NCBI GenBank assembly: GCA_025454755.1
Contig: JALONV010000002.1
Coordinates: forward strand, 10,052 to 74,051
Reading direction: 5' to 3'
Source of the DNA: Bacteroidales bacterium
GTDB lineage: Bacteria > Bacteroidota > Bacteroidia > Bacteroidales > VadinHA17
Length of the DNA: 64,000 bases
The translations under genes and the position numbers were made by a program. Below, piece by piece: positions 1,291 through 50,521 of the stretch (position 1 is its first letter; each line of letters begins with the position of its first letter). Below the pieces are notes generated by a model. It was not told the origin of the DNA. It saw only the letters and a list, made by a program, of their open reading frames with translations, and made no database searches.

Positions 1291-1377
1291 GCCCCCCTGC
1301 CTAAAGGGGGAGTGTAACTTTTCGTAAAAATAATATTTTATATGGGGTTTTAGCCCCCCTTCAGGGGGGATGGGGGG
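1291..1377. repeat. GC-rich double-hairpin intergenic element, copy 1
   Basis: The layout is CCCCCCTGCCTAAAGGGGG (1292-1310), an AT-rich spacer with GGGGTTT, then CCCCCC TTCA GGGGGG (1354-1369), AT, and GGGGGG (1372-1377). It directly abuts the polA stop (TTA 1378-1380). Confidence 0.85.
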
Positions 1378-4221
1378 TTATTTAGCTTCAAACCAATTCC
1401 GCCCCGTCCCCCAGTCAACCTTAAGCGGGATATCGAGTTTCGCGGCATTCGACATTTCATCAATTACCATAATCTTTAGCTTTTCAAGTTCTGAATCGGG
1501 CACCTCAAAAATGAGTTCGTCATGAACCTGCAGAATCATTTTCGATCTATACTTACCTTCTTTCAGCCTGTTGTCGATCCTTATCATGGCGATCTTAATA
1601 ATATCGGCAGCGGAGCCCTGTATGGGGGCATTTATGGCATTTCGTTCTGCATTGCCTCTTACCACCTGATTGCGGGAATGTATGTCGCGCAGATATCTTC
1701 TCCGTCCGAACATTGTGGTTACATATCCTTTATCTCTGGCCTTTTTTATGCTCTCATCCATGTAGGTTTTAACTCCCGGATAGGACGTAAAATATCCGTC
1801 AATGAGCTCCCTGGCTTCTTTTCGACCAATGGTAAGCCGCTCCGATAATCCAAACGAAGAAATGCCGTATATTATCCCGAAATTTGCAGTCTTTGCCCTG
1901 CTTCTCATTTCCCGCGTTACATCCTTTATATCAACACCAAAAATTTTGGAAGCAGTAGCCGCATGAATGTCATTTCCGGAAAGGAAATCTGATATCATGC
2001 TTTTATCCCGGCTGAGATGTGCCATCAGTCTCAGTTCTATCTGGGAATAATCCGCTGAAAAGAAAATATGGCCTTTTTCAGGTACAAACGCTTTTCTTAT
2101 CTCCCGGCCCCTTTCATCTCTTACCGGAATATTCTGAAGGTTGGGATTATTGGAGCTCAGTCTGCCTGTGGCAGCTACTGCCTGATTAAATGAAGTGTGA
2201 ATTCGGCCGGTCTTTCTGTCAATGAGTTGAGGCAATGCTTCAACATACGTCGTTAATAGCTTCTTTAATCCCCTGTATTCTAACACTTTATCAATAATTG
2301 GATGCTTATGTGCAAGGCGTTGAAGTATCTCTTCATTTGTAACAAACTGTCTGGTGCTTGTCATTCTTGCTTTGTCGTCAAGCTTCAGTTTTAAGAATAA
2401 TATATCTCCGAGCTGTTTGGGAGAAGAGATATTAAACTCTGTACCCGCAAGATTGAATATCTCTTTTTCAAGGAAAATAATATCATCCCGCAAGCTTGCA
2501 GTGATGAATTTGAGTTCCGCGGTATTCAGAATTACACCATTGCGTTCCATGAGTGCCAGAACGGGAATAAGAGGCATTTCAATATTGGACGATAACTCTG
2601 CAAGCCCTTCTGATTTTATTCTTGGTTCAAAAACATTCTTAAGCTGAAGTGTTACATCGGCATCCTCAACCGCATATTCCTTCAGCTTATCATTATCAAC
2701 TGAACGCATGTTTTTTTGCGTTTCGCCTTTCTCTCCGATCAACGATTCGATATGCACAGGAGTGTAGGAAAGATAGGTTTCCGATAGCAGGTTCATATTA
2801 TGGCGCATATCCGGCTCAAGAAGGTAATGGGCGATCATCGTGTCAAACAATGGTCCCCTGATCTCGATGCCATAATTTGCCAGCACCTGGATGTCAAATT
2901 TAAGATTCTGTCCGATTTTAATTATCGCCGGGTTTTCAAGAACCGGTCTGATTATGCTGAGAAGCCTGTGTGTCTCTTCCCTTGATTCCGGGAAGCGTAC
3001 AAGGTATCCTTTACTTTTTTCCCATGAAAATGCAATTGCTACAATTTCCGACTCAAGCGGATTGATGCTGGTGGTCTCCGTATCGAAACATATCTCCTTT
3101 TGCCCGGATGCGATTTCTGTCAATTTTCTTAATGACTGATCATCAGCGATAAGAATATATTCATGTTCCACATTCTCAATTGTCGATTTTGTAGTGTTGA
3201 CGATTGTCTCTTCTGTCTCTTCAGGGCCAAAAAAGAGAGAGCCCTGTACAGAGCCGGAGGAGGCATTCTGTTCTTGTTTTTCAGTTGCTGCAGGTCCTGC
3301 CACGGGCTTCTCGTGCTTTTCTATTTCAGAGAGTATCCTGGCAGCTACGGTTCTGAATTCAAGCTCCTCAAACAGGGTTTTCAGCTTCAGAGGATCAGGA
3401 ATTTCTGTTTCAAGTTCTTTTTCATTAAGATCAACCGGCACCCGAGTATCTATGGTTGCCAGTCTTTTTGACAATTCGATTTTTTCCCTGTTTCCTTCTA
3501 TGATTTCTTTCAGCTTCCCTTTTAGTTTGTCAGTATGTTTGAACAGCTCTTCCACTGAACCATATTCTGATATCAGTTTCATGGCTGTCTTTGGTCCCAC
3601 TCCCGGAGCTCCGGGAATATTATCGGAAGTGTCGCCCATGAGTGCAAGGATATCAATTACCTGTTTCGGATCCTTTACCTGGAATTCCCTTTTTATATCT
3701 TCAACACCCCATTGAACTGATTCATTCCCGCTTCTTGAGGGCTTGAACATCCGGACATTGTCAGTAACCAGCTGTGCAAAATCCTTATCAGGAGTCATCA
3801 TATATGTCGTGAATCCTTTTTCAGAGGCCTTTCTTGCCAGAGTTCCTATTACATCATCGGCTTCATAGCCCGGATAATCTATAACCGGAATTTTATAAGC
3901 CTCAATCAGTTTCTTGATATAAGGCACGGCTTTTTTTATGTCTTCAGGCGTCTCATCCCTGTTCGCCTTGTACTCAGGGTACATTTCATGCCTGAAGGTT
4001 GGCGTGGGAGTATCAAACACTACTGCAATATGTGTGGGTTTCTGTTTTTGCAGAACCTCTTCCAGTGTAAGAAGAAATCCAAATACAGCAGAAGTATTGA
4101 GCCCTTTGGATGTAATCCTGGGATTCTTAATGAATGCATAATACGATCTGAATATCAGGGCATATGCATCAAGTAAGAATAGTTTTTTCGGGATGTTCTC
4201 AATCATGTTTCTTTTCTTCAA
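1378..4221 (-). CDS. polA: DNA polymerase I
   Basis: 947 aa. It has a 5'-nuclease N-terminus ('LLDAYALIFRSYYA'), a 3'-5' exonuclease region ('CFDTETTS') and a family A polymerase domain ('RRRAKTANFGIIYG', 'QVHDELIFE'). Confidence 0.97.
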   Translation of the reverse strand: MKKRNMIENIPKKLFLLDAYALIFRSYYAFIKNPRITSKGLNTSAVFGFLLTLEEVLQKQKPTHIAVVFDTPTPTFRHEMYPEYKANRDETPEDIKKAVPYIKKLIEAYKIPVIDYPGYEADDVIGTLARKASEKGFTTYMMTPDKDFAQLVTDNVRMFKPSRSGNESVQWGVEDIKREFQVKDPKQVIDILALMGDTSDNIPGAPGVGPKTAMKLISEYGSVEELFKHTDKLKGKLKEIIEGNREKIELSKRLATIDTRVPVDLNEKELETEIPDPLKLKTLFEELEFRTVAARILSEIEKHEKPVAGPAATEKQEQNASSGSVQGSLFFGPEETEETIVNTTKSTIENVEHEYILIADDQSLRKLTEIASGQKEICFDTETTSINPLESEIVAIAFSWEKSKGYLVRFPESREETHRLLSIIRPVLENPAIIKIGQNLKFDIQVLANYGIEIRGPLFDTMIAHYLLEPDMRHNMNLLSETYLSYTPVHIESLIGEKGETQKNMRSVDNDKLKEYAVEDADVTLQLKNVFEPRIKSEGLAELSSNIEMPLIPVLALMERNGVILNTAELKFITASLRDDIIFLEKEIFNLAGTEFNISSPKQLGDILFLKLKLDDKARMTSTRQFVTNEEILQRLAHKHPIIDKVLEYRGLKKLLTTYVEALPQLIDRKTGRIHTSFNQAVAATGRLSSNNPNLQNIPVRDERGREIRKAFVPEKGHIFFSADYSQIELRLMAHLSRDKSMISDFLSGNDIHAATASKIFGVDIKDVTREMRSRAKTANFGIIYGISSFGLSERLTIGRKEARELIDGYFTSYPGVKTYMDESIKKARDKGYVTTMFGRRRYLRDIHSRNQVVRGNAERNAINAPIQGSAADIIKIAMIRIDNRLKEGKYRSKMILQVHDELIFEVPDSELEKLKIMVIDEMSNAAKLDIPLKVDWGTGRNWFEAK

Positions 4222-4250
4222 TAATTATAATGTCATTTGCCTTAATGTCA

Positions 4251-4357
4251 GACCCCCTGGCCGCTGCGCGGCCCTCCCGCCTAAGCAGGACTAAAACCCA
4301 GTACTAAATAAGATTTCCTTATTGGGTTTCAACCCCCCTTCAGGGGGGGCTGGGGGG
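4251..4357. repeat. GC-rich double-hairpin intergenic element, copy 2
   Basis: The left part is degenerate, with nested hairpins GGCCGC TGC GCGGCC (4259-4273) and TCCCGC CTAA GCAGGA (4275-4290). The right part is CCCCCC TTCA GGGGGGG (4333-4349), CT, and GGGGGG (4352-4357). It abuts the queD stop (TTA 4358-4360). Confidence 0.85.
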
Positions 4358-4810
4358 TTATCTATTATCTTCTGCAAACCATTCGGCGTATGATTTTGCG
4401 GTTTCATATAGTTTCAGGCTGTGAAGTGAGATCCCTTCAGGCATTTCATTAATGAGCCTGCCTGCAAAATCAGCAACAAGATTTTCGCAGGTGGGCTGGT
4501 AATCAACGATTACTGTATTCCCGAAGGTTTTTTCCAGCATTCCCTTTTTTTCTTCGTCAAAATTCCTGCTGATCACAACTGAATGGTCGAACAGATTTAC
4601 AATCTTCTTAAGGACAATATTCTTTAGTTCGGTAAAATCGATTACCATTCCGTTTTTCGGATTGTCTGCATCATTTACAGGAACACCCGATAAAGTCACG
4701 AAAAGCCGGTATGAGTGGCCATGAACATTTCTGCACGGACCATCATAATTTCCAAGTACATGTGCCATCTCAAAAGTGAACTCTCTTGTGACCCTGATTA
4801 TTGAATTCAT
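4358..4810 (-). CDS. queD: 6-carboxy-5,6,7,8-tetrahydropterin synthase (6-pyruvoyl-tetrahydropterin synthase family)
   Basis: 150 aa. 'REFTFEMAHVL..CRNVHGHSYRLFVTL' carries the Cys/His-His zinc and catalytic motif of the QueD/PTPS family. Confidence 0.88.
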   Translation of the reverse strand: MNSIIRVTREFTFEMAHVLGNYDGPCRNVHGHSYRLFVTLSGVPVNDADNPKNGMVIDFTELKNIVLKKIVNLFDHSVVISRNFDEEKKGMLEKTFGNTVIVDYQPTCENLVADFAGRLINEMPEGISLHSLKLYETAKSYAEWFAEDNR

Positions 4811-4972: not shown

Positions 4973-6619
4973 ATGGAAGAGATCATACAAAAACTAACTT
5001 TCCCTGCATTATTCAACGAAACTATCCGCAGATGCGGCAAATCGCGAGCTTACGCTTTTGTGGGAGAAGAACCGATAACTTACGAAGAAGCAGGAAGAAA
5101 GATCCAGGCTTTATCAGCATTTCTTGAAAAAGCAGACATACACCCGGGTGACAGAGTTGCCCTGCTTAGCACCAATATGCCAAACTGGCCATTAGCCTAT
5201 TTTTCAGTAACGTTCATGGGGGCCGTAATTGTTCCGATACTTCCGGATTTTTCTGTTACGGAAGTTGCAAATGTACTGGAGCACTCCGGAGCCAGGGCTA
5301 TTTTTATATCATCAGGGCTTGTATCGAGAATTGAAGGATTCAGGTCGGAAAATCTAAAGACAGTAATCTCTCTGGAAGATTTTTCCATTGTCAGTTCCGA
5401 AAAGAATTTATCGGGATTTGATCCCGGTGCAACACCATCACAAAACTATGATGTAAAGGAAGATGACCTTGCAGCTATAATCTATACTTCGGGGACAACG
5501 GGTCGTTCAAAAGGAGTAATGCTGACACATAAAAACATAACATTCAATGCATTCAAGGGATATAAAATTCAGCCTGTTGATGAAAATGACCGTTTTTTGT
5601 CGGTGCTTCCACTGTCGCATACTTATGAGAATACCCTGGGATTGATTCTGCCGCTAATCGGAGGATCATGTGTCTATTATTTAAGAAAGCCTCCCACTCC
5701 GCCTGTGCTGATGCCGGCGCTTGAACTGGTTAAACCCACTGTCATGCTGACTGTTCCCCTGATTATGGAAAAAGTATATTTTAACAAGATTCTTCCGGCT
5801 TTCAGGGAAAAACTTATACTTAAGCTTCTCTATAAAATCCCGATCTTCAGGAAATTGCTCCACCTTGCTGCCGGTAAAAAGCTGTATAAAACATTTGGTG
5901 GAAATCTTAAATTTTTCGGTATCGGAGGAGCCAAGCTTAACAGAAGCGCTGAACAATTCCTTAGCGAAGCTAAATTCCCATATGCCATCGGCTATGGTCT
6001 GACTGAAACTTCACCTCTTCTTGCGGGTGCCAATCCCAGCAAAACGGTATTTCTATCAACCGGACCGGCAATTGAAGATATTGAATTGAAAATCAATAAT
6101 CCGGATAAGAAAACCGGAGAAGGAGAAATCTGGGCAAGAGGAGCAACTGTTATGAAAGGTTATTACAAGGAACCTGAAATGACAGCCGAAGTGCTGACTC
6201 CTGATGGCTGGTTCAAAACCGGAGATCTTGGTGTGCTTGACAAAAACAACAACCTTTTCATCAGGGGAAGACTTAAAAATATGATTGTTGGTGCAAGCGG
6301 TGAGAATATTTATCCCGAAGAGATCGAGTCTGTTATCAACAATTTCCGTTTTGTGGTTGAATCGCTTGTTGTTCAGCAGAAAGGAAAACTTGTAGCTTAT
6401 GTTCACCTTAACATGGAAGAGCTTGAAAAGAAATATCAGAACCTGAAACAGGACATGTCGGATAAATACGAAGAGAAAAAGGAAGAGTTGCTGGCTGAGT
6501 TAAAGGAATACGTCAATTCACAGGTCAATAAGTTCAGCCAGATACAAAAGGTTGAGCTTCAGCCTGTCCCGTTTCAGAAAACAGCAACACTTAAAATAAA
6601 AAGGTTTCTGTACACATAA
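4973..6619 (+). CDS. AMP-dependent synthetase/ligase, long-chain-fatty-acid--CoA ligase-like
   Basis: 548 aa. AMP-binding signature 'IIYTSGTTGRSKGVMLTHKN', followed by 'GYGLTETS' and 'WFKTGDLG'. Confidence 0.85.
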   Translation: MEEIIQKLTFPALFNETIRRCGKSRAYAFVGEEPITYEEAGRKIQALSAFLEKADIHPGDRVALLSTNMPNWPLAYFSVTFMGAVIVPILPDFSVTEVANVLEHSGARAIFISSGLVSRIEGFRSENLKTVISLEDFSIVSSEKNLSGFDPGATPSQNYDVKEDDLAAIIYTSGTTGRSKGVMLTHKNITFNAFKGYKIQPVDENDRFLSVLPLSHTYENTLGLILPLIGGSCVYYLRKPPTPPVLMPALELVKPTVMLTVPLIMEKVYFNKILPAFREKLILKLLYKIPIFRKLLHLAAGKKLYKTFGGNLKFFGIGGAKLNRSAEQFLSEAKFPYAIGYGLTETSPLLAGANPSKTVFLSTGPAIEDIELKINNPDKKTGEGEIWARGATVMKGYYKEPEMTAEVLTPDGWFKTGDLGVLDKNNNLFIRGRLKNMIVGASGENIYPEEIESVINNFRFVVESLVVQQKGKLVAYVHLNMEELEKKYQNLKQDMSDKYEEKKEELLAELKEYVNSQVNKFSQIQKVELQPVPFQKTATLKIKRFLYT

Positions 6620-6704: not shown

Positions 6705-7430
6705 TTATTTCAAAGCTTCTTTATATAATTTGTTCACTTCATTCCAGTTTACAACATTCCAGAATGCCTCAACATAATCAGCTCTTTTATTCTGATATTT
6801 CAGGTAATAGGCATGCTCCCATACATCAATTGTCAGAATCGGAGTCCCCTTTAGTGGTGAAATATCCATAAGGGGATTGTCCTGGTTGGGCGTACTGCCA
6901 ACTGCCAGGGCTTTATCAGCTGCAACTACCAGCCATGCCCATCCGCTTCCAAAACGTGTCTTTGCAGCATTGCTGAATGTTTCTTTGAATTTGTCAAATG
7001 AACCGAAAGCTTTTTCAATGGCCGCAGATAGTTCGGGAGAGGGACCTGCAGATCCTTTTCCAAGGATCCTCCAGAAGAATACGTGATTATAATAACCTCC
7101 GCCATTGTTCTTTATCGGATCTCCGGCCTTCGATATCTCTGAGAATACTTTTCCGAGGGGCATGTTCTCATAGGCAGTGCCCTTTATCGCAGCCACATAA
7201 TTATTAAAATATGCCCTGTGGTGTTTGTCGTAATGTATTTCCATTGTCCTTGCATCTAAATAAGGCTCAAGCGCATCATATGCGTATGGCAGTGCAGGGA
7301 ATTCTTTTGTGCTTAAATTTTCCATATCAGTTGTATTTGAATTAGTTACCTGCCCGGAAAGGGAAAATAATGCAGTAAGCATCAAGGTAATCACCAACCC
7401 GGATTTTTTTTCTAAATTTATATTTGCCAT
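6705..7430 (-). CDS. Fe/Mn-family superoxide dismutase, Mn-type, with N-terminal signal peptide
   Basis: 241 aa with 'HYDKHHRAYFNNYV' and 'STPNQDNPL..DVWEHAYYLKYQNKRADYVEAFWNVVNW'. The NQD motif is as in E. coli SodA. About 40 extra N-terminal residues include the hydrophobic 'GLVITLMLTALFSLSG'. Confidence 0.9.
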   Translation of the reverse strand: MANINLEKKSGLVITLMLTALFSLSGQVTNSNTTDMENLSTKEFPALPYAYDALEPYLDARTMEIHYDKHHRAYFNNYVAAIKGTAYENMPLGKVFSEISKAGDPIKNNGGGYYNHVFFWRILGKGSAGPSPELSAAIEKAFGSFDKFKETFSNAAKTRFGSGWAWLVVAADKALAVGSTPNQDNPLMDISPLKGTPILTIDVWEHAYYLKYQNKRADYVEAFWNVVNWNEVNKLYKEALK

Positions 7431-7608
7431 TTATGTTAGTTTGGTTGTTAAACAAGTAAACCCAAAGAATGTTCAAATATTATTTTTCTGACAAAATATT
7501 GCATAAGAGCCCGTTAAAGCAAAATTATTATTTATTATGCAACTTTTAGCTTAATTTTACCGTTATATAAATAACCTGAAACGTTTACACAACTTAATAC
7601 AACATAAT

Positions 7609-8427
7609 ATGAAAAAGTATTTCACTTTATTGCTGTTGACAGTTTTCCTTGCAAGTATAATGACCAGCTGCAAGAAAAAACATGGAGATCCTCCGATACT
7701 GCCTCCACAGGAATCCATGATAATTGACTTCTCTAATTTTGAATCGGGGAAGAAATCATCGGATTTCACGGCTCAGAAAGGCGTTAATGACTATAACTGG
7801 GGATTTTCTGCCCTTGTCGCAAAATATTGGACAGATGTTATATTTGTGACCCTTGCTGTTCCGGTGGCAGCATTTGATCTGGCGCTTGATCAGGATCCTG
7901 TCTGGATTGAGAAGAACACATGGCAGTGGAGCTATGATGTAACAGTCCTTTCCGTTAAATTTAAAGCCAGGCTTGTAGGTCTGATCAGGTCAACTGATGT
8001 TTTATGGAAAATGTATATTACCCGGGAAGGGACAGGTGGTTTTGCTGAATTCCTCTGGTTTGAAGGCACTTCAAACCTTGACAGAAAAGGCGGATCCTGG
8101 ACTCTCAATTATAGTTCTTCTGATCAGACGCCGGTGCTTTCAGTAACCTGGACCGGAGACGGAACAAAAGTAACCTATGTCAAATATACATATGTCAGAA
8201 ATGGCACATTCAAGAACAGCTACATAGAGTACAAAACATCAGCGACTTCTGCAAGCTTCGACTCAAGTTATAAAATTTATTATTCCACTAATGGAGTAGA
8301 TTATAACGAAATGAATGTTGAGTGGAATTCTGTAAATTTCAGCGGCAGGGTAAAATGCCAGGCCTTCTATTCTGATACCAACTGGCATTGCTGGAATGAA
8401 AACTATGTTGATATCACATGCCCGTAA
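7609..8427 (+). CDS. hypothetical lipoprotein
   Basis: 272 aa. The signal peptide ends in lipobox-like 'IMTSC'. I recognise no family. Confidence 0.65.
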   Translation: MKKYFTLLLLTVFLASIMTSCKKKHGDPPILPPQESMIIDFSNFESGKKSSDFTAQKGVNDYNWGFSALVAKYWTDVIFVTLAVPVAAFDLALDQDPVWIEKNTWQWSYDVTVLSVKFKARLVGLIRSTDVLWKMYITREGTGGFAEFLWFEGTSNLDRKGGSWTLNYSSSDQTPVLSVTWTGDGTKVTYVKYTYVRNGTFKNSYIEYKTSATSASFDSSYKIYYSTNGVDYNEMNVEWNSVNFSGRVKCQAFYSDTNWHCWNENYVDITCP

Positions 8428-8457
8428 AACCAATATTACCGTAATGATTAAACTTGT

Positions 8458-8491
8458 AGAGACGCCCCGTTTGGGCGTCTCTGCAGTTTTT
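8458..8491 (+). terminator. rho-independent-type terminator after lipoprotein gene
   Basis: AGAGACGCCC (8458-8467) pairs with GGGCGTCTCT (8473-8482) across a 5-nt loop. It is followed by GCAGTTTTT. Confidence 0.7.
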
Positions 8492-11641: not shown

Positions 11642-12250
11642 ATGTCGACCGCAAAGAAGTCTGTTCTGTTTATTCTTCTGATTCTCATCATCGATCAGAT
11701 TCTTAAGATATGGGTTAAAACTCATATGCAGATCGGTGATGAGATCTATATTTTCGGGAATCGCGGGATGCTCCATTTCATTGAAAATAACGGAATGGCA
11801 TTCGGGATGGAAATGGGCGGCAGTACAGGCAAATATATTCTGAGCATCTTCAGGATAATAGCAATTATTGGAATCAGCTGGTTCCTTTCGTCAATAATTA
11901 AGAAAAATGCCAATCTTGGATTTGTGATGGCTGTAAGCGCAATACTGGCCGGAGCAACAGGAAATCTGATTGACAGTGCTTTCTACGGAATTATATTCAG
12001 CGAGAGTTACACTGCGCCTGCAATAATGTTCCCTCCCGGAGGAGGATATTCGTCATTTCTTCAGGGAAGGGTGGTTGATATGTTATATTTCCCGGTTATT
12101 CAGACACACTGGCCGGAATGGTCGCCCTTACGCCCGGGGGAATCATTTGTATTCTTCAGACCGGTATTTAATATCTCCGATTCCGCCATTACCTGCGGTG
12201 TAATTTCAATCCTTATCTGGCAGAAAAAGATGTTTAAGGATTTTAACTAA
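11642..12250 (+). CDS. lspA: lipoprotein signal peptidase (signal peptidase II)
   Basis: 202 aa with 'NNGMAFGM', 'GNLIDSAFYG', 'VVDMLYF' and 'FNISDSAI'. Confidence 0.88.
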   Translation: MSTAKKSVLFILLILIIDQILKIWVKTHMQIGDEIYIFGNRGMLHFIENNGMAFGMEMGGSTGKYILSIFRIIAIIGISWFLSSIIKKNANLGFVMAVSAILAGATGNLIDSAFYGIIFSESYTAPAIMFPPGGGYSSFLQGRVVDMLYFPVIQTHWPEWSPLRPGESFVFFRPVFNISDSAITCGVISILIWQKKMFKDFN

Positions 12251-12261
12251 AAATTGCCTCT

Positions 12262-12323
12262 AAATCCCTTAAAGGGGACTTATTGTTACTAATTTTCTTA
12301 GGCCCCCTTCAGGGGGTTGGGGG
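12262..12323. repeat. GC-rich double-hairpin intergenic element, copy 3 (short)
   Basis: TCCCTTAAAGGGGA is at about 12265-12278, followed by a spacer. Then come CCCCC TTCA GGGGG (12303-12316), TT, and GGGGG (12319-12323). The right arm lies inside the 3' end of ORF 12298..12615. Confidence 0.75.
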
Positions 12324-12615
12324 CACAACACTCCCCAACACTTATCAGAACGTTCTTCAGGTTTGAATGTTTAAGAAAATACCACGTATTCTTCCCTTCC
12401 CGCTTTGACGAAAGGACTCCTCTGTCTTTCAATATCACAAGATGATGAGATGCCGTGGCCTGTCCGATTCCCAGTTTCCTGTGGATTTCCGTTACAGTTC
12501 TCTTCTTTCCGTCCTCAAGGTACTGAACGATTGATATTCTTACCGGATGTGCTATTGCCTTAAGCAGATTTGCAGCTTTGTCAAGGACTTCAGGATTAAG
12601 TTCCTTTAATTCCAT
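12298..12615 (-). CDS. ArsR/SmtB-family transcriptional regulator
   Basis: 105 aa with 'LKAIAHPVRISIVQYL' and 'EIHRKLGIGQATASHHLVILKDRGVL'. The last 8 codons ('APNPLKGA') are encoded by repeat copy 3. Confidence 0.85.
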   Translation of the reverse strand: MELKELNPEVLDKAANLLKAIAHPVRISIVQYLEDGKKRTVTEIHRKLGIGQATASHHLVILKDRGVLSSKREGKNTWYFLKHSNLKNVLISVGECCAPNPLKGA

Positions 12616-23147: not shown

Positions 23148-23272
23148 GATTGCTTCGTCGCTTCGCTCCTCGCAATGACGGTTGATTATTATGACTCGTT
23201 AAACTGTAACAAGGCTAAGTTTAGTAACTGTCATTGCGAGGAGACACGCGCCAGTGTGGCGCCGAAGCAATC
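23148..23272. repeat. inverted-repeat (MITE/REP-like) element, GATTGCTTCG...CTCGCAATGAC type, copy A
   Basis: The left arm is GATTGCTTCGTCGCTTCGCTCCTCGCAATGAC (23148-23179). The right arm is GTCATTGCGAGGAG[ACACGCGCCAGTGTGGCGC]CGAAGCAATC (23230-23272). The central loop is about 50 nt and AT-rich. Confidence 0.85.
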
Positions 23273-23305
23273 CTTCTAAATAACCACTACCCCGATTAAA
23301 GGACC

Positions 23306-27356: not shown

Positions 27357-27499
27357 GATTGCTTCGTCGCGGAGTTTACCCCGCGAAGCGGGGCTCCTCG
27401 CAATGAGGATAATTCAAATATCGATTGTAAATCTTTATAGATCGTTTATTATCAGATCTGCGGTCATTGCGAGTCCCGCCTAAGCGGGACGAAGCAATC
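27357..27499. repeat. inverted-repeat (MITE/REP-like) element, GATTGCTTCG...CTCGCAATGA type, copy B
   Basis: The left arm is GATTGCTTCGTC[GCGGAGTTTACCCCGCGAAGCGGGG]CTCCTCGCAATGA (27357-27406). The right arm is GTCATTGCGAG[TCCCGCCTAAGCGGGA]CGAAGCAATC (27463-27499). The loop is about 56 nt and AT-rich. Confidence 0.85.
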
Positions 27500-27517
27500 T
27501 TCCCGGACTACCACAAA

Positions 27518-48807: not shown

Positions 48808-49650
48808 ATGAAATACGTTGGCGCACATGTATCAGCAGAAGGCGGTGTTCAGAATGCCCCTGTCAATGCCAATGCCATCGGAGCTAAGGCATTCGCACTT
48901 TTCACAAAAAATCAGCGGCAGTGGTTTTCAAGTCCGCTTACATCAAAATCGATCTCTGAATTCAGGGCAAACTGCGAAAAATTCGATTATAAACCGTTCC
49001 AGATACTTCCGCACGACAGCTACCTGATAAACCTCGGACACCCTGAAAAAGAGCCGCTGGAAAAATCAAGAACCTCATTTATGGATGAAATGAAAAGATG
49101 CGAGCTTCTCGGCCTTGACAGGTTGAATTTTCATCCGGGCAGTCATCTGAATAACATTACAATAGATGAGTGTCTTAAAAGAATTGCAGAATCGATTAAT
49201 ATTTCATTCGACAAAACAAAAGGCGTAATTGCGGTCATTGAAAATACTGCAGGCCAGGGAACAAACCTGGGACATACATTTGAACAAATAGCGTTCATAA
49301 TTTACCATGTTGAAGATAAATCGCGTGTTGGTGTCTGCATAGATACCTGTCATGCATACACTTCAGGATATGAGGTGAAAACAAAAAACGGGTTCACTGA
49401 AACATTTAAAAGATTTTCTGAAATAATCGGCATGCAATATTTAAAGGGAATGCATCTGAATGATTCAAAGAAAGACTATGGTACCAGGGTTGACCGTCAT
49501 GAAAACATTGGAGGAGGATTTCTTGGGGAAGAAATTTTTTCGCTGATAATGAACGATAGCCGGTTCGACAATATACCGTTGATTCTTGAAACCCCCGAGG
49601 AATCATTATGGGAAGCAGAAATAAAAAAATTGTATTCATTTATTAAATAA
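48808..49650 (+). CDS. nfo: deoxyribonuclease IV (endonuclease IV)
   Basis: 280 aa with 'GAHVSAEGG', 'NFHPGSH', 'CIDTCHAY' and 'HLNDSK'. Confidence 0.93.
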
Positions 49651-49730
49651 CCCCCCACCCCCCTAAAGGGGGGTTAAAAACCCATAAATTTAATTTTTGG
49701 TTTCACCCCCCCTTCAGAGGGGCAGGGGGG
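49651..49730. repeat. GC-rich double-hairpin intergenic element, copy 4 (most symmetric)
   Basis: The left end is CCCCCC A CCCCCC TAAA GGGGGG (49651-49673), followed by an AT-rich core. The right end is CCCCCCC TTCA GAGGGG CA GGGGGG (49706-49730). The two ends are approximate reverse complements. Confidence 0.85.
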
Positions 49731-50521
49731 TTGGTTAGTTTATCTGAAATAGCTTTCTGAATTTCTAAATCCCTCAGCTTCTCCTTGGTTTTTTTATAAC
49801 CCAGTTCAAAAAGCTCATCTGCTTTTTCCACGCCAAGGATACTATATTTTGTGAGCTCCGGAGGAGCAATCAGAATATCGAATTTATCTCCCTTTTCTTC
49901 GACCTCCTTTGCCTGGTCGAGCATAAATATTCTCACCGCAATGGTAATAAATCCTGATGTTGTAGCTTCATACCCTACTGGATTAACGAAAGACCCGATC
50001 AGCATTTTGCATTTGTTTTCGATAGGCTTAACAGGAAAGTTATCAAGAACTCCGCCATCAACATAATATATCTTATTAATTATCACTGGTTTAAACAATA
50101 AAGGAATGCTTGAGGATGCAATTAAAGCTGTAACCAGTTCCCCTTTTGAAAAATAAACAGGTCTGGCATTATTCAGATCGGTTGCACAAACAATCAAAGG
50201 TATTTTCAATTCTTCAAACCTTTTTGCTTTCAAATTGGCTTTCAGCAATTTCGCAATGCCTGAAATATCGAGCAATCCGTCACGGGGAATAACGGGGCGC
50301 ATTAAATCAAGCTTACTTTGGGGCTTCATTATTTTAAGGATCTCCCTGGGTGAATGACCATCACAGTATAACGCTCCAGCCAGAGAACCAGCACTGGTGC
50401 CGGCAATAATATCAGGGAAAATATCTGATTCATTCAATGCCTGCAATACTCCAAGATGGGCAAAACCCCTTGCTCCGCCACCGCTCAGCACCAAACCGGT
50501 TTTATATTTTTCTTCAGGCAT
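49703..50521 (-). CDS. patatin-like phospholipase
   Basis: 272 aa with 'LVLSGGGARGFAHLGVL', the GxSxG motif 'GTSAGS' and the catalytic Asp region 'YVDGGVLDNFP'. The last residues '..NPPAPLKGG' are encoded by repeat copy 4. Confidence 0.88.
   Translation of the reverse strand: MPEEKYKTGLVLSGGGARGFAHLGVLQALNESDIFPDIIAGTSAGSLAGALYCDGHSPREILKIMKPQSKLDLMRPVIPRDGLLDISGIAKLLKANLKAKRFEELKIPLIVCATDLNNARPVYFSKGELVTALIASSSIPLLFKPVIINKIYYVDGGVLDNFPVKPIENKCKMLIGSFVNPVGYEATTSGFITIAVRIFMLDQAKEVEEKGDKFDILIAPPELTKYSILGVEKADELFELGYKKTKEKLRDLEIQKAISDKLTNPPAPLKGG

Follow-up and report, generated by a model that had tools for sequence, protein, structure and literature searches.

What are the GC-rich double-hairpin elements that stand on either side of polA in this stretch of Bacteroidales DNA (64 kb, here called the window), and how did they come to lie flush with the stop codons of polA and queD? 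Four such elements are present, at 1292-1377, 4253-4357, 12257-12323 and 49651-49730 (copies 1 to 4), where direct reading of the DNA confirms the positions given in an earlier analysis made from the letters alone (the sequence-only reading). Considering all the evidence together, they are probably gene-less miniature copies of a palindromic repeat family of the Bacteroidota, similar to BoxC, whose full-length relatives contain a DUF559 gene. The sequence-only reading had found in them no resemblance to a recognisable family; in architecture they correspond to the BoxC/PIT/TM_ECO intrastrand-triplex motif, which has already been described.

A common building block is found in all four elements: a C5-6 run, a linker of 1-3 nt and a hairpin made of C5-6, a T[GA]AA loop and G5-6. 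Two such units face outward, with an AT-rich spacer between them. Within the window the stems are C5-7/G5-7 homopolymers, one of which is interrupted (GAGGGG, in copy 4), and the linkers measure 1-2 nt; the right-hand motif, C5-7 TTCA G5-7 N2 G5-6, is featured by all four copies, while the distal unit is decayed in copies 1-3. When CCCCCTTCAGGGGG is searched with up to two mismatches, matches occur at these four loci only: nine strand-matches are found, against 0.20 expected from dinucleotide-preserving shuffles, and none of 100 shuffles reached nine. The window has a G+C content of 40%, and runs of six or more C or G are almost confined to the four elements. As single strands, the elements are predicted to fold with energies of -25 to -60 kcal/mol (z -2.2 to -5.4).

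The wider sample was collected with the pattern C5 TTCA G5 N1-4 G5, taking one genome per species; 121 loci (numbered with L below), together with the window, gave 203 units. The pattern occurs in at least 120 genome stretches, nearly all from Bacteroidota (Mucilaginibacter, Ferruginibacter, Sediminibacterium, Paludibacter and members of the Chitinophagaceae, Saprospiraceae and Cytophagaceae), and in 73 stretches of viral or proviral contigs. Read on the C-first strand, the unit opens with run 1 (C4-6), from which a linker of 1-5 nt leads to run 2 (C5-6); the T[GA]AA loop and run 3 (G5-6) complete it. Among 202 units, the first loop is TGAA in 158, TAAA in 43 and TTAA in one, and the linker is mostly AA, TAA, AG or TG. 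The unit is real and polar: the upstream C-run accompanies 158 of the 167 hairpins with a TGAA loop and 45 of the 48 with a TAAA loop, which is not part of the scan pattern; with the reverse-complement loops, it is found in 2 of 167 hairpins (TTCA) and in 0 of 47 (TTTA).

Units no more than 250 nt apart are arranged with their heads, that is their outer C-run ends, pointing outward in 47 cases, in tandem in 11 and heads-in in none. The resulting elements are 56-200 bp long, with terminal inverted repeats of about 22-30 nt and spacers of 7-150 nt, the sequences of which are unrelated between genomes. A target-site duplication was looked for in the 47 pairs, with k = 2-5 and at all offsets: the counts equal the shuffled expectation. 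A position-weight table of the bases 5' of the unit reports only a purine at -1 and T/A at -4 to -2; past the G-run, T is enriched only at +3/+4. Run 1 and run 2 may be compared in three heteropolymeric variants only, where they are mirrored (L082, L034) or direct (L056); for homopolymer runs, mirror symmetry is trivially satisfied.

The link to DUF559 emerged from the open reading frames (ORFs) enclosed by distant heads-out units. In L027, the gene for a protein of 124 residues, assigned to DUF559 by Pfam (E 1.5e-34), is inserted precisely between the stop of umuD and the start of umuC and has a unit at either end. When all loci were searched with tblastn, six DUF559 genes turned up; every one of them belongs to the unit-selected set and is bracketed by units or unit variants. 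Four further loci, reached from DUF559 protein homologues, are also bracketed, the gene (X) being found in the order umuD-[X]-umuC twice, hutU-[X]-ispF and nuoJ-[X]-nuoK. Units therefore bracket all ten DUF559 genes examined in Bacteroidota, and the umuD/umuC junction recurs in L027, L208 and L209. Unit-encoded C-termini (..IPPSGG, ..PPLGGWGV, ..NNPL) are found in 35 of 120 Bacteroidota DUF559 homologues and in none of 120 control proteins, these being RAYTs (transposases associated with REPs, the repetitive extragenic palindromic sequences). In two loci, L109 and L050, the whole unit-DUF559-unit block lies in frame inside rfbB and leuS, with open frames of 398 and 1117 residues, the units being translated as LAPLPPKG.. 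and ..SPFRGSGGS; they survive in frame because C-runs and G-runs are read as Pro and Gly in every frame. The nearest solved structure to DUF559 is 3hrl (E 2e-23), followed by a marginal match to the homing endonuclease I-Bth0305I (3r3p, E 0.88): by similarity, DUF559 is assigned a Vsr-like PD-(D/E)XK nuclease fold. An association of DUF559 with a repeat is not described in the literature that could be searched, where the exact hairpin sequences gave irrelevant matches only.

The names of some DUF559 proteins deserve a remark. Stand-alone members (P0128, P0130, P0132, P0133, P0139, P0147 and others) bear the name 'cyclase' or 'imidazole glycerol-phosphate synthase subunit HisF' in one public source, likely through annotation transfer from a HisF gene with a DUF559 insertion.

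The prototype of DUF559 is YcjD of E. coli, and repeats lie beside its gene as well. The ycjD reading frame runs into a BoxC/TM_ECO motif, ending in CCCTCTCCC-TGAAA-GAGCGAGGGGG; about 170 nt past its end, CCCTCGCCC-CTCTG-GGGAGAGGG-TTA-GGGTGAGGG is found, a string that corresponds to the BoxC/PIT/TM_ECO motif of PMC4666352. The DUF559 gene of Enterobacter asburiae occupies a different locus, hemW/yggW-DUF2884, where its ORF runs into a heads-out pair composed of a type B and a type A TM_ECO. Tails of the ..PSPRPSP type, encoded by TM_ECO (translation of CCCTCNCCC-CGN-CCCTCNCCC), are present in 85 of 120 enterobacterial YcjD homologues. None of the 120 features the Bacteroidota tail signature, and the enterobacterial signature is likewise missing from the Bacteroidota DUF559 set: each DUF559 clade carries its own motif type only. 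Comparison of the sequences suggests a partnership of DUF559 nuclease and repeat similar to that of REPs and RAYTs. A wider proposal is made tentatively: the C/G-rich 'intrastrand-triplex' repeats (BoxC/PIT/TM_ECO and the C5/G5 variant) may, as a whole class, have DUF559 nucleases as their cognate partners, and would then form with them an unrecognised PD-(D/E)XK repeat-nuclease system.

Some details of the E. coli genes are reported here on their own account. In E. coli MG1655 (L214, 7290-7420), a second copy of the final ~60 nt of ycjD (..ETVLENILQELNRR..) lies ~70 nt downstream (..ETVLENIRQGLNRP..), a decayed motif following; in the E. coli homologues P0244 and P0252 the frame reads through into ..GPLAPLGRGLG. 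A rough reading of BoxC copies per genome in 28 sampled rows gives 4-6 with ycjD and 2-6 without it. In one ycjD-less strain the place beside fabI is taken by a different, larger region with RND efflux and TetR genes, and not by a clean empty site.

The arrival of the elements was evaluated at orthologous sites, in 80 queD loci from metagenomes with a QueD identity of 66-95%. The order queD-polA-moaD is kept across the 80 loci. Spacers of at most 30 nt separate queD from polA in 37 of 75 loci, 7 nt being the commonest length, and polA from moaD in 11 of 40; only spacer-length counts were kept, as a strict classification by regular expression under-calls C-units with inserted hairpins or long loops. 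The remaining loci contain, at queD-polA or polA-moaD, C-unit elements (for example L129, L139, L164, L169, L171; L142, L146, L151, L161, L184, L198) or unrelated repeats, and the closest relative, L128 (QueD identity 95%), has other repeat types at both junctions. The short spacers of the relatives indicate that the window elements are insertions and not conserved signals; they are probably tolerated passengers. The sequence-only reading had left two possibilities for polA-moaDE, transcription through copy 1 or a promoter carried by it. Since in several relatives only 1-13 nt separate polA from moaD, read-through is the likeliest, and queD-polA-moaDE as a whole is most likely transcribed through copies 2 and 1.

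Insertion is also mirrored in the position of units relative to genes. Related copies are found between nuoJ and nuoK, between umuD and umuC and, in frame, within rfbB, leuS and histidine-kinase genes. Of 94 single units, 27 have the head -30 to +10 nt from a co-oriented stop, while an inner end stands in this way to a convergent stop in 1 of 99. For C-oriented single units, an upstream ORF stops within -27 to +3 nt in 13 of 26 cases; for G-oriented ones between tandem genes, a downstream start lies no more than 12 nt from the head in 8 of 14. Heads touch gene boundaries of either kind, as insertion of an inverted pair into a very short spacer would give. Between divergent genes, units are mildly depleted (6 of 96, against 69 of 663 background spacers).

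Other repeats were seen at the same junctions and in the same loci. A second inverted-repeat element, unrelated to the first, occupies the queD-polA spacer of many relatives; its ends are like AAGTTTGGAGTGCCTAGAGTGCCTAGAG ... CTCTAGGCACTCTAGGCACTCCAAACT, it lies in the first ~200 nt past the queD stop, and it often begins at the stop codon or replaces it (L128, L138, L143, L146, L148, L156, L158, L161-L163, L165, L167, L170, L172, L173, L175, L178, L179, L182, L186, L192, L194, L196, L197, L201). A third type, in the polA-moaD spacer, consists of tandem 8-mers ACGGCRCA, for example acggcgcaacggcgcaacggcgtgacggcg, located after the polA stop and in some cases followed by a C-unit (L128, L139-L141, L151, L161, L165, L171, L172, L186, L194, L195, L206). 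The palindrome TCCCGATAGCTATCGGGA (sequence tcccgatagctatcggga) is found inside the C-unit linker of L198 and, independently, in L040; judging by such cases, one small palindrome can apparently be nested inside another. In L121 (~7300-7800) a tandem array with a period of ~122 nt contains a unit pair per period (CCCCCCATCCCCCCAAGGGGGG ... CCCCCTTCAGGGGGCAGGGGG). Finally, three paralogous histidine-kinase ATPase domains (L093 ~2604, L111 ~2800 and ~6457) contain a single unit in frame (..TFTPPSGGWGVSVKDNG..), its DNA being identical between the paralogues and the flanks different.

The following course of events is proposed. The elements arrive, without target-site duplication, as insertions in short intergenic spacers, their heads coming to end flush with stop or start codons or replacing the last codons of a gene. 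Full-length relatives contain a DUF559 gene between two units. Where the DNA is transiently single-stranded, the nuclease may recognise the folded unit, made of the hairpin and the third run. An intrastrand triplex or an alternative hairpin are candidates for the folded unit, and a fold of the whole element could form a junction closed by the two heads. A break made by the nuclease might let the element be copied to new sites; gene-less pairs might be mobilised in trans, in the way REPINs (inverted REP doublets) are mobilised by RAYTs. Copies 2 and 1 would add stable structures to the queD-polA-moaDE transcript, where folds of -34 and -60 kcal/mol are predicted for them.

If the proposal is true, unit, nuclease gene and unit together make up, in the full-length form, a small mobile element that can enter operons or, in frame, essential genes, where the C/G runs act as Pro/Gly linkers. 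It would also account for how BoxC arose and spread, which has lacked an explanation since the 1990s; earlier accounts of these repeats are those of Bergler in 1992, of Bachellier in the 1990s and of Hoyne in 2000. DUF559, a large family of unknown function, would gain a concrete candidate substrate. For the window itself the repeat matters little: it is probably a passenger in queD-polA-moaDE and in two other neighbourhoods, and it has rewritten the last 7-9 codons of two genes. As to annotation, such elements make spurious C-terminal extensions and explain odd Pro/Gly insertions, such as those of histidine kinases, RfbB and LeuS in relatives.

A number of observations weigh against the proposal. 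Mobility and the role of the nuclease are deduced from comparison of sequences, mobility in particular from presence and absence among fairly distant relatives (66-95% QueD identity). Units stand at the same position in different Mucilaginibacter species, with diverged flanks (L014/L092, L046/L052), which fits a host function too. Neither the 64-kb window nor 0.5 Mb of queD-region relatives nor 0.63 Mb of viral contigs with units yielded a DUF559 gene: the window copies can therefore only be gene-less derivatives, and for this genome the link to DUF559 is by family resemblance. As for TM_ECO, Holder et al. (2015, PMC4666352) could not detect in vivo the triplex formed in vitro, and found the repeat 'not associated' with mobile elements. 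BoxC copies, moreover, persist in E. coli without ycjD, a gene present in 3378 of 5426 complete genomes. The arrangement also differs, since in Bacteroidota units bracket the gene, while in Enterobacter and E. coli a heads-out pair lies downstream of it, and in L080 the DUF559 gene stands between complete pairs whose heads point toward it, as around any gene. Instead of being the engine, DUF559 could therefore be a neighbour of the repeats or a secondary invader.

Persistence without ycjD, the downstream pairs and L080 also speak for an explanation in which the BoxC-like repeats are real and DUF559 is a homing-type selfish gene, landing in or near units or tolerated there, while the units spread by another route (replication slippage, recombination or an unidentified enzyme). 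In its favour, DUF559 clades look site-specific, as is typical of homing genes, with umuD/umuC as the recurrent site, and units far outnumber DUF559 genes, of which the unit-bearing viral contigs contain none. We consider it unlikely, because the insertion boundaries in rfbB and leuS fall exactly at the two unit heads, so that unit, gene and unit arrived, or are kept, as one block, and because a clade-own motif pairing across two phyla is hard to explain without a functional tie. A host signal for 3' ends, in the form of U-tract-less terminators or mRNA-protecting hairpins selected after stop codons, had been among the roles offered by the sequence-only reading. Heads lying directly at the stop codons of polA, queD and the AP-endonuclease gene, the preference of single-unit heads for co-oriented stops (27/94, against 1/99 for inner ends), the strong predicted structures and the mild depletion between divergent genes are all compatible with it. 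Yet no U-tract lies past the hairpin on the transcribed strand, and a terminator scan called nothing on the minus strand at the window elements. Heads lie at start codons as often as an inverted pair predicts, copies are found in tight operons (nuoJ/nuoK, umuD/umuC) and in frame in genes, and most relatives lack an element at the junctions. An identical 21-nt sequence across the phylum is unlike ordinary terminators, and PIT/BoxC elements have neither promoter nor terminator activity in E. coli (PMC4666352); a dedicated 3'-end role is thus improbable.

A palindrome similar to REPs or to MITEs (miniature inverted-repeat transposable elements), another of the roles offered, comes nearest to the evidence of a phylum-wide, multi-copy family of inverted pairs, polymorphic for insertion at orthologous sites; the corresponding enzymes fare less well. 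Mobilisation of a REP/REPIN by a RAYT (Y1 HUH) transposase, the partner suggested in the sequence-only reading, would agree with inverted pairs, lack of target-site duplication, mostly extragenic location and many copies. One RAYT gene does lie ~600 nt from a unit, in L064, and Bacteroidetes-specific RAYT subclasses with 'atypical' REPs are on record (PMC6006769). In the units, however, the C-run is preceded simply by a purine, and a GT[AG]G or CGTC head is missing; the RAYT homologues of L122-L127 are flanked by 'double-foot' REPs of the GTAGAGAAAATTCATGAATTTTCTCTAC type, with no C-units in 20 kb; the RAYT of L064 carries a GTAG REP within its own gene; and the REPs of subclass 2.6, in the consulted part of the supplementary table of PMC6006769, are unrelated in sequence. 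A RAYT-type REP (REPtron) was accordingly rejected, the four RAYT homologues followed into long contigs all carrying GTAG double-foot REPs and not C-units, and this origin is very improbable. Slightly less credit still is given to MITEs derived by truncation from an insertion sequence that ends in these terminal inverted repeats and encodes a DDE transposase: the length of the repeats, the size of 56-200 bp and the number of copies would suit them, but target-site duplications are missing at any offset (k = 2-5), and the ORFs enclosed by distant heads-out units belong to housekeeping genes or to DUF559, none of them to a transposase. Least probable of all is a G-quadruplex or i-motif former, or a structured non-coding RNA. 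A G-quadruplex needs four G-runs. Copy 1 does feature four on its plus strand, and the predicted folds are strong; this is peculiar to copy 1, a pair having three G-runs and three C-runs per strand and a single unit two and one. As to RNA, the sequence-only reading was right that no family explains the element: Rfam gave 0 matches in the whole window at the gathering threshold, and permissive scans of two regions gave only generic hairpins far below threshold. The spacer is not conserved between genomes, and support from covariation is lacking because the stems are almost invariant.

Some REPs of the RAYT type were met along the way. The RAYT gene of L064 (4966-5655, minus strand) contains its GTAG REP in frame, giving the peptide ..GGNVEKIHEFSLPT.. 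plus an SQPT repeat; its flanks (4621-4810 and 6100-6280) are ~190-nt direct repeats, each with a C/G unit at the end. In the window, GTAGAGACGCCCCGTTTGGGCGTCTCTGC at 8456-8484 is a GTAG-headed 'double-foot' REP hairpin, resembling the REPs given for RAYT subclass 2.4 in PMC6006769; this genome probably also hosts a classical REP/RAYT system.

The units and spacers of the four copies are reported in Table 1. The neighbouring genes named in the sequence-only reading are supported by Pfam (polA, PTPS/QueD, ThiS/MoaD, MoaE), and its GGGGGG-TTA, at 1372-1380 and 4352-4360, is indeed a G-run followed by the reverse-strand stop of polA or queD; its distance of 13 nt from copy 1 to the moaD start is also correct. 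In copies 3 and 4, by contrast, the G-run does not abut the end of a minus-strand gene, as had been stated: the ORFs run through the right-hand unit and stop inside the element (12298-12300 and 49703-49705). The intact unit of copy 3 is translated as the C-terminal tail ..PNPLKGA of an ArsR-type ORF (12298..12615), and the right unit of copy 4 as the tail ..NPPAPLKGG of a patatin-like ORF (49703..50521), each tail ending at the stop codon. The gene that ends at the left unit of copy 4 is of the AP-endonuclease-2 family (48808..49650, plus strand). An orientation of '4 of 4' holds in the sense that one arm is better preserved; the elements, being inverted pairs of one unit, have no polarity as a whole, and copy 4 has an intact left unit at a plus-strand stop. 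The GGGTTT noted in the spacer belongs, in copies 2 and 4, to an inner AAACCC/GGGTTT stem, of which it is one half; copy 3 lacks it.

Table 1. Units and spacers of the four window elements (positions in the window; unit sequences are written from the C-run)
Feature	Position	Strand	Description
Copy 1, degenerate distal unit	1292..1310	+	CCCCCC TGCC TAAA GGGGG; 13 nt upstream of moaD start codon 1276-1278
Copy 1, spacer	1311..1353		AT-rich, holds GGGGTTTT
Copy 1, intact unit	1354..1377	-	On minus strand TAA, CCCCCC AT CCCCCC TGAA GGGGGG; head flush with polA stop 1378-1380
Copy 2, degenerate distal unit	4253..4291	+	Head CCCCC at 4253-4257; 46 nt upstream of polA ATG called in public contig
Copy 2, spacer	4292..4332		Inner AAACCC...GGGTTT stem
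Copy 2, intact unit	4333..4357	-	On minus strand TAA, CCCCCC AG CCCCCCC TGAA GGGGGG; head flush with queD stop 4358-4360
Copy 3, degenerate distal unit	12257..12278	+	CCTC TAAA TCCC TTAAA GGGGA; start 6 nt past lspA stop 12248-12250
Copy 3, intact unit	12303..12323	-	On minus strand CCCCC AA CCCCC TGAA GGGGG
Copy 4, intact left unit	49651..49673	+	CCCCCC A CCCCCC TAAA GGGGGG; head flush with TAA stop 49648-49650
Copy 4, spacer	49674..49705		Inner AAAACCC...GGTTT stem; contains TGA stop 49703-49705 (minus) of patatin-like ORF
Copy 4, right unit	49706..49730	-	On minus strand CCCCCC TG CCCCTC TGAA GGGGGGG; one stem mismatch

In the predicted folds of copies 1, 2 and 4, the outermost C-run is paired with the outermost G-run; for copy 1, the outer C-run of the distal unit pairs with the G-run at 1372-1377. 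The linker of the distal unit of copy 2 is enlarged by a GC hairpin, GGCCGC-TGC-GCGGCC (4259-4273), followed by an imperfect one, TCCCGC-CTAA-GCAGGA; expansion by linker hairpins, with different sequences, is also found in L164, L146 and L198. The distal unit of copy 3 belongs to a subtype, 'CCCC TAAAT CCCC TAAA GGGG ACTT', also present in L080, L096, L113 and L120. From the distal end of copy 2, upstream of polA, a near-perfect match of the sigma-70 type (CTGACA, 16 nt, TATAAT; 11/12) is located at 4224-4251 on the minus strand; the Bacteroidota consensus differs. Elsewhere in the window, at 23231-23273, 27357-27408 and 27462-27503, three copies of another repeat, (t)cattgcgag-[GC hairpin]-cgaagcaatc, are found; the motif is also present in the flanks of L040 and L083.

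Several known systems resemble the family in part. Rho-independent terminators share a GC-rich hairpin just past stop codons, and differ in their U-tract: the units have no U-tract, feature an extra C-run and a conserved sequence, and lie inside operons and coding sequences. Free-standing homing endonuclease genes (Vsr-like EDxHD, I-Bth0305I) are, like the DUF559 genes, small nuclease genes between conserved co-oriented neighbours, with a recurrent umuD/umuC junction; we know of none with terminal inverted C/G-run units or with hundreds of gene-less miniature copies. The Rickettsia palindromic elements (Ogata et al.) are reportedly, since 2000, the case of palindromic selfish repeats located in frame in protein genes and tolerated as extra peptides. 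They differ in being 100-150 bp long, AT-rich and confined to Rickettsia, the Bacteroidota units being tolerated as Pro/Gly linkers; to our knowledge, no nuclease gene is associated with them. The REP/REPIN-RAYT system is closer, with short hairpin repeats that often form inverted doublets, copies in the hundreds, no target-site duplication, repeats on both sides of the cognate nuclease gene, a repeat type co-varying with the nuclease clade and occasional insertion in frame. It is based, however, on a GTAG/CGTC head and a Y1 HUH transposase, while the Bacteroidota units have no such head and are linked to the Vsr-like DUF559.

The closest likeness is to BoxC/PIT/TM_ECO. TM_ECO, defined as 5'-CCCTCNCCC N3-6 GGGNGAGGG N3 GGGNGAGGG, is present in 23 copies in E. 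coli MG1655, where it is always intergenic, and in 3610 copies in 262 proteobacterial genomes; it often forms an inverted pair of two subtypes, with TTA or CCG as second loop, and its loci are unusually variable (PMC4666352). The differences from the Bacteroidota unit lie in the stems, 9-nt CCCTCNCCC/GGGNGAGGG instead of homopolymeric C5-6/G5-6, in the second loop, fixed at 3 nt where the Bacteroidota linker is 1-4 nt, and in the hosts, which are enterobacterial, Bacteroidota not being mentioned in PMC4666352. The triplex was shown in vitro for TM_ECO, to which the Bacteroidota variant is likened by its sequence architecture. The window units do not follow the published TM_ECO pattern, and the unit is therefore filed as a variant of the same architectural class and not as a TM_ECO member. 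All intact window units have a pyrimidine stem, a complementary purine stem and a mirroring purine block (C5-7/G5-7/G5-6), with a TGAA or TAAA loop, within the 3-6 nt of the class, and a short second loop, and the elements are multi-copy, mostly intergenic inverted pairs (four copies in 64 kb). The order of parts is the same in both groups: a C-stem and a G-stem enclose a loop of 3-6 nt, and a second G-stem follows after another, short loop. This second loop, often TTA in BoxC/PIT/TM_ECO, corresponds to a TAA linker (C-strand) in 28 of 202 Bacteroidota units. Both repeats are multi-copy and intergenic, form frequent inverted pairs, often of two subtypes, have variable loci and no known function, and are physically linked to DUF559 genes. 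By these features, the window elements are classed as a Bacteroidota variant of BoxC/PIT/TM_ECO; as the repeat architecture was already known from that class, the part that appears new in the literature searched is the association with DUF559, which is consistent, matched to lineage and found in two phyla.

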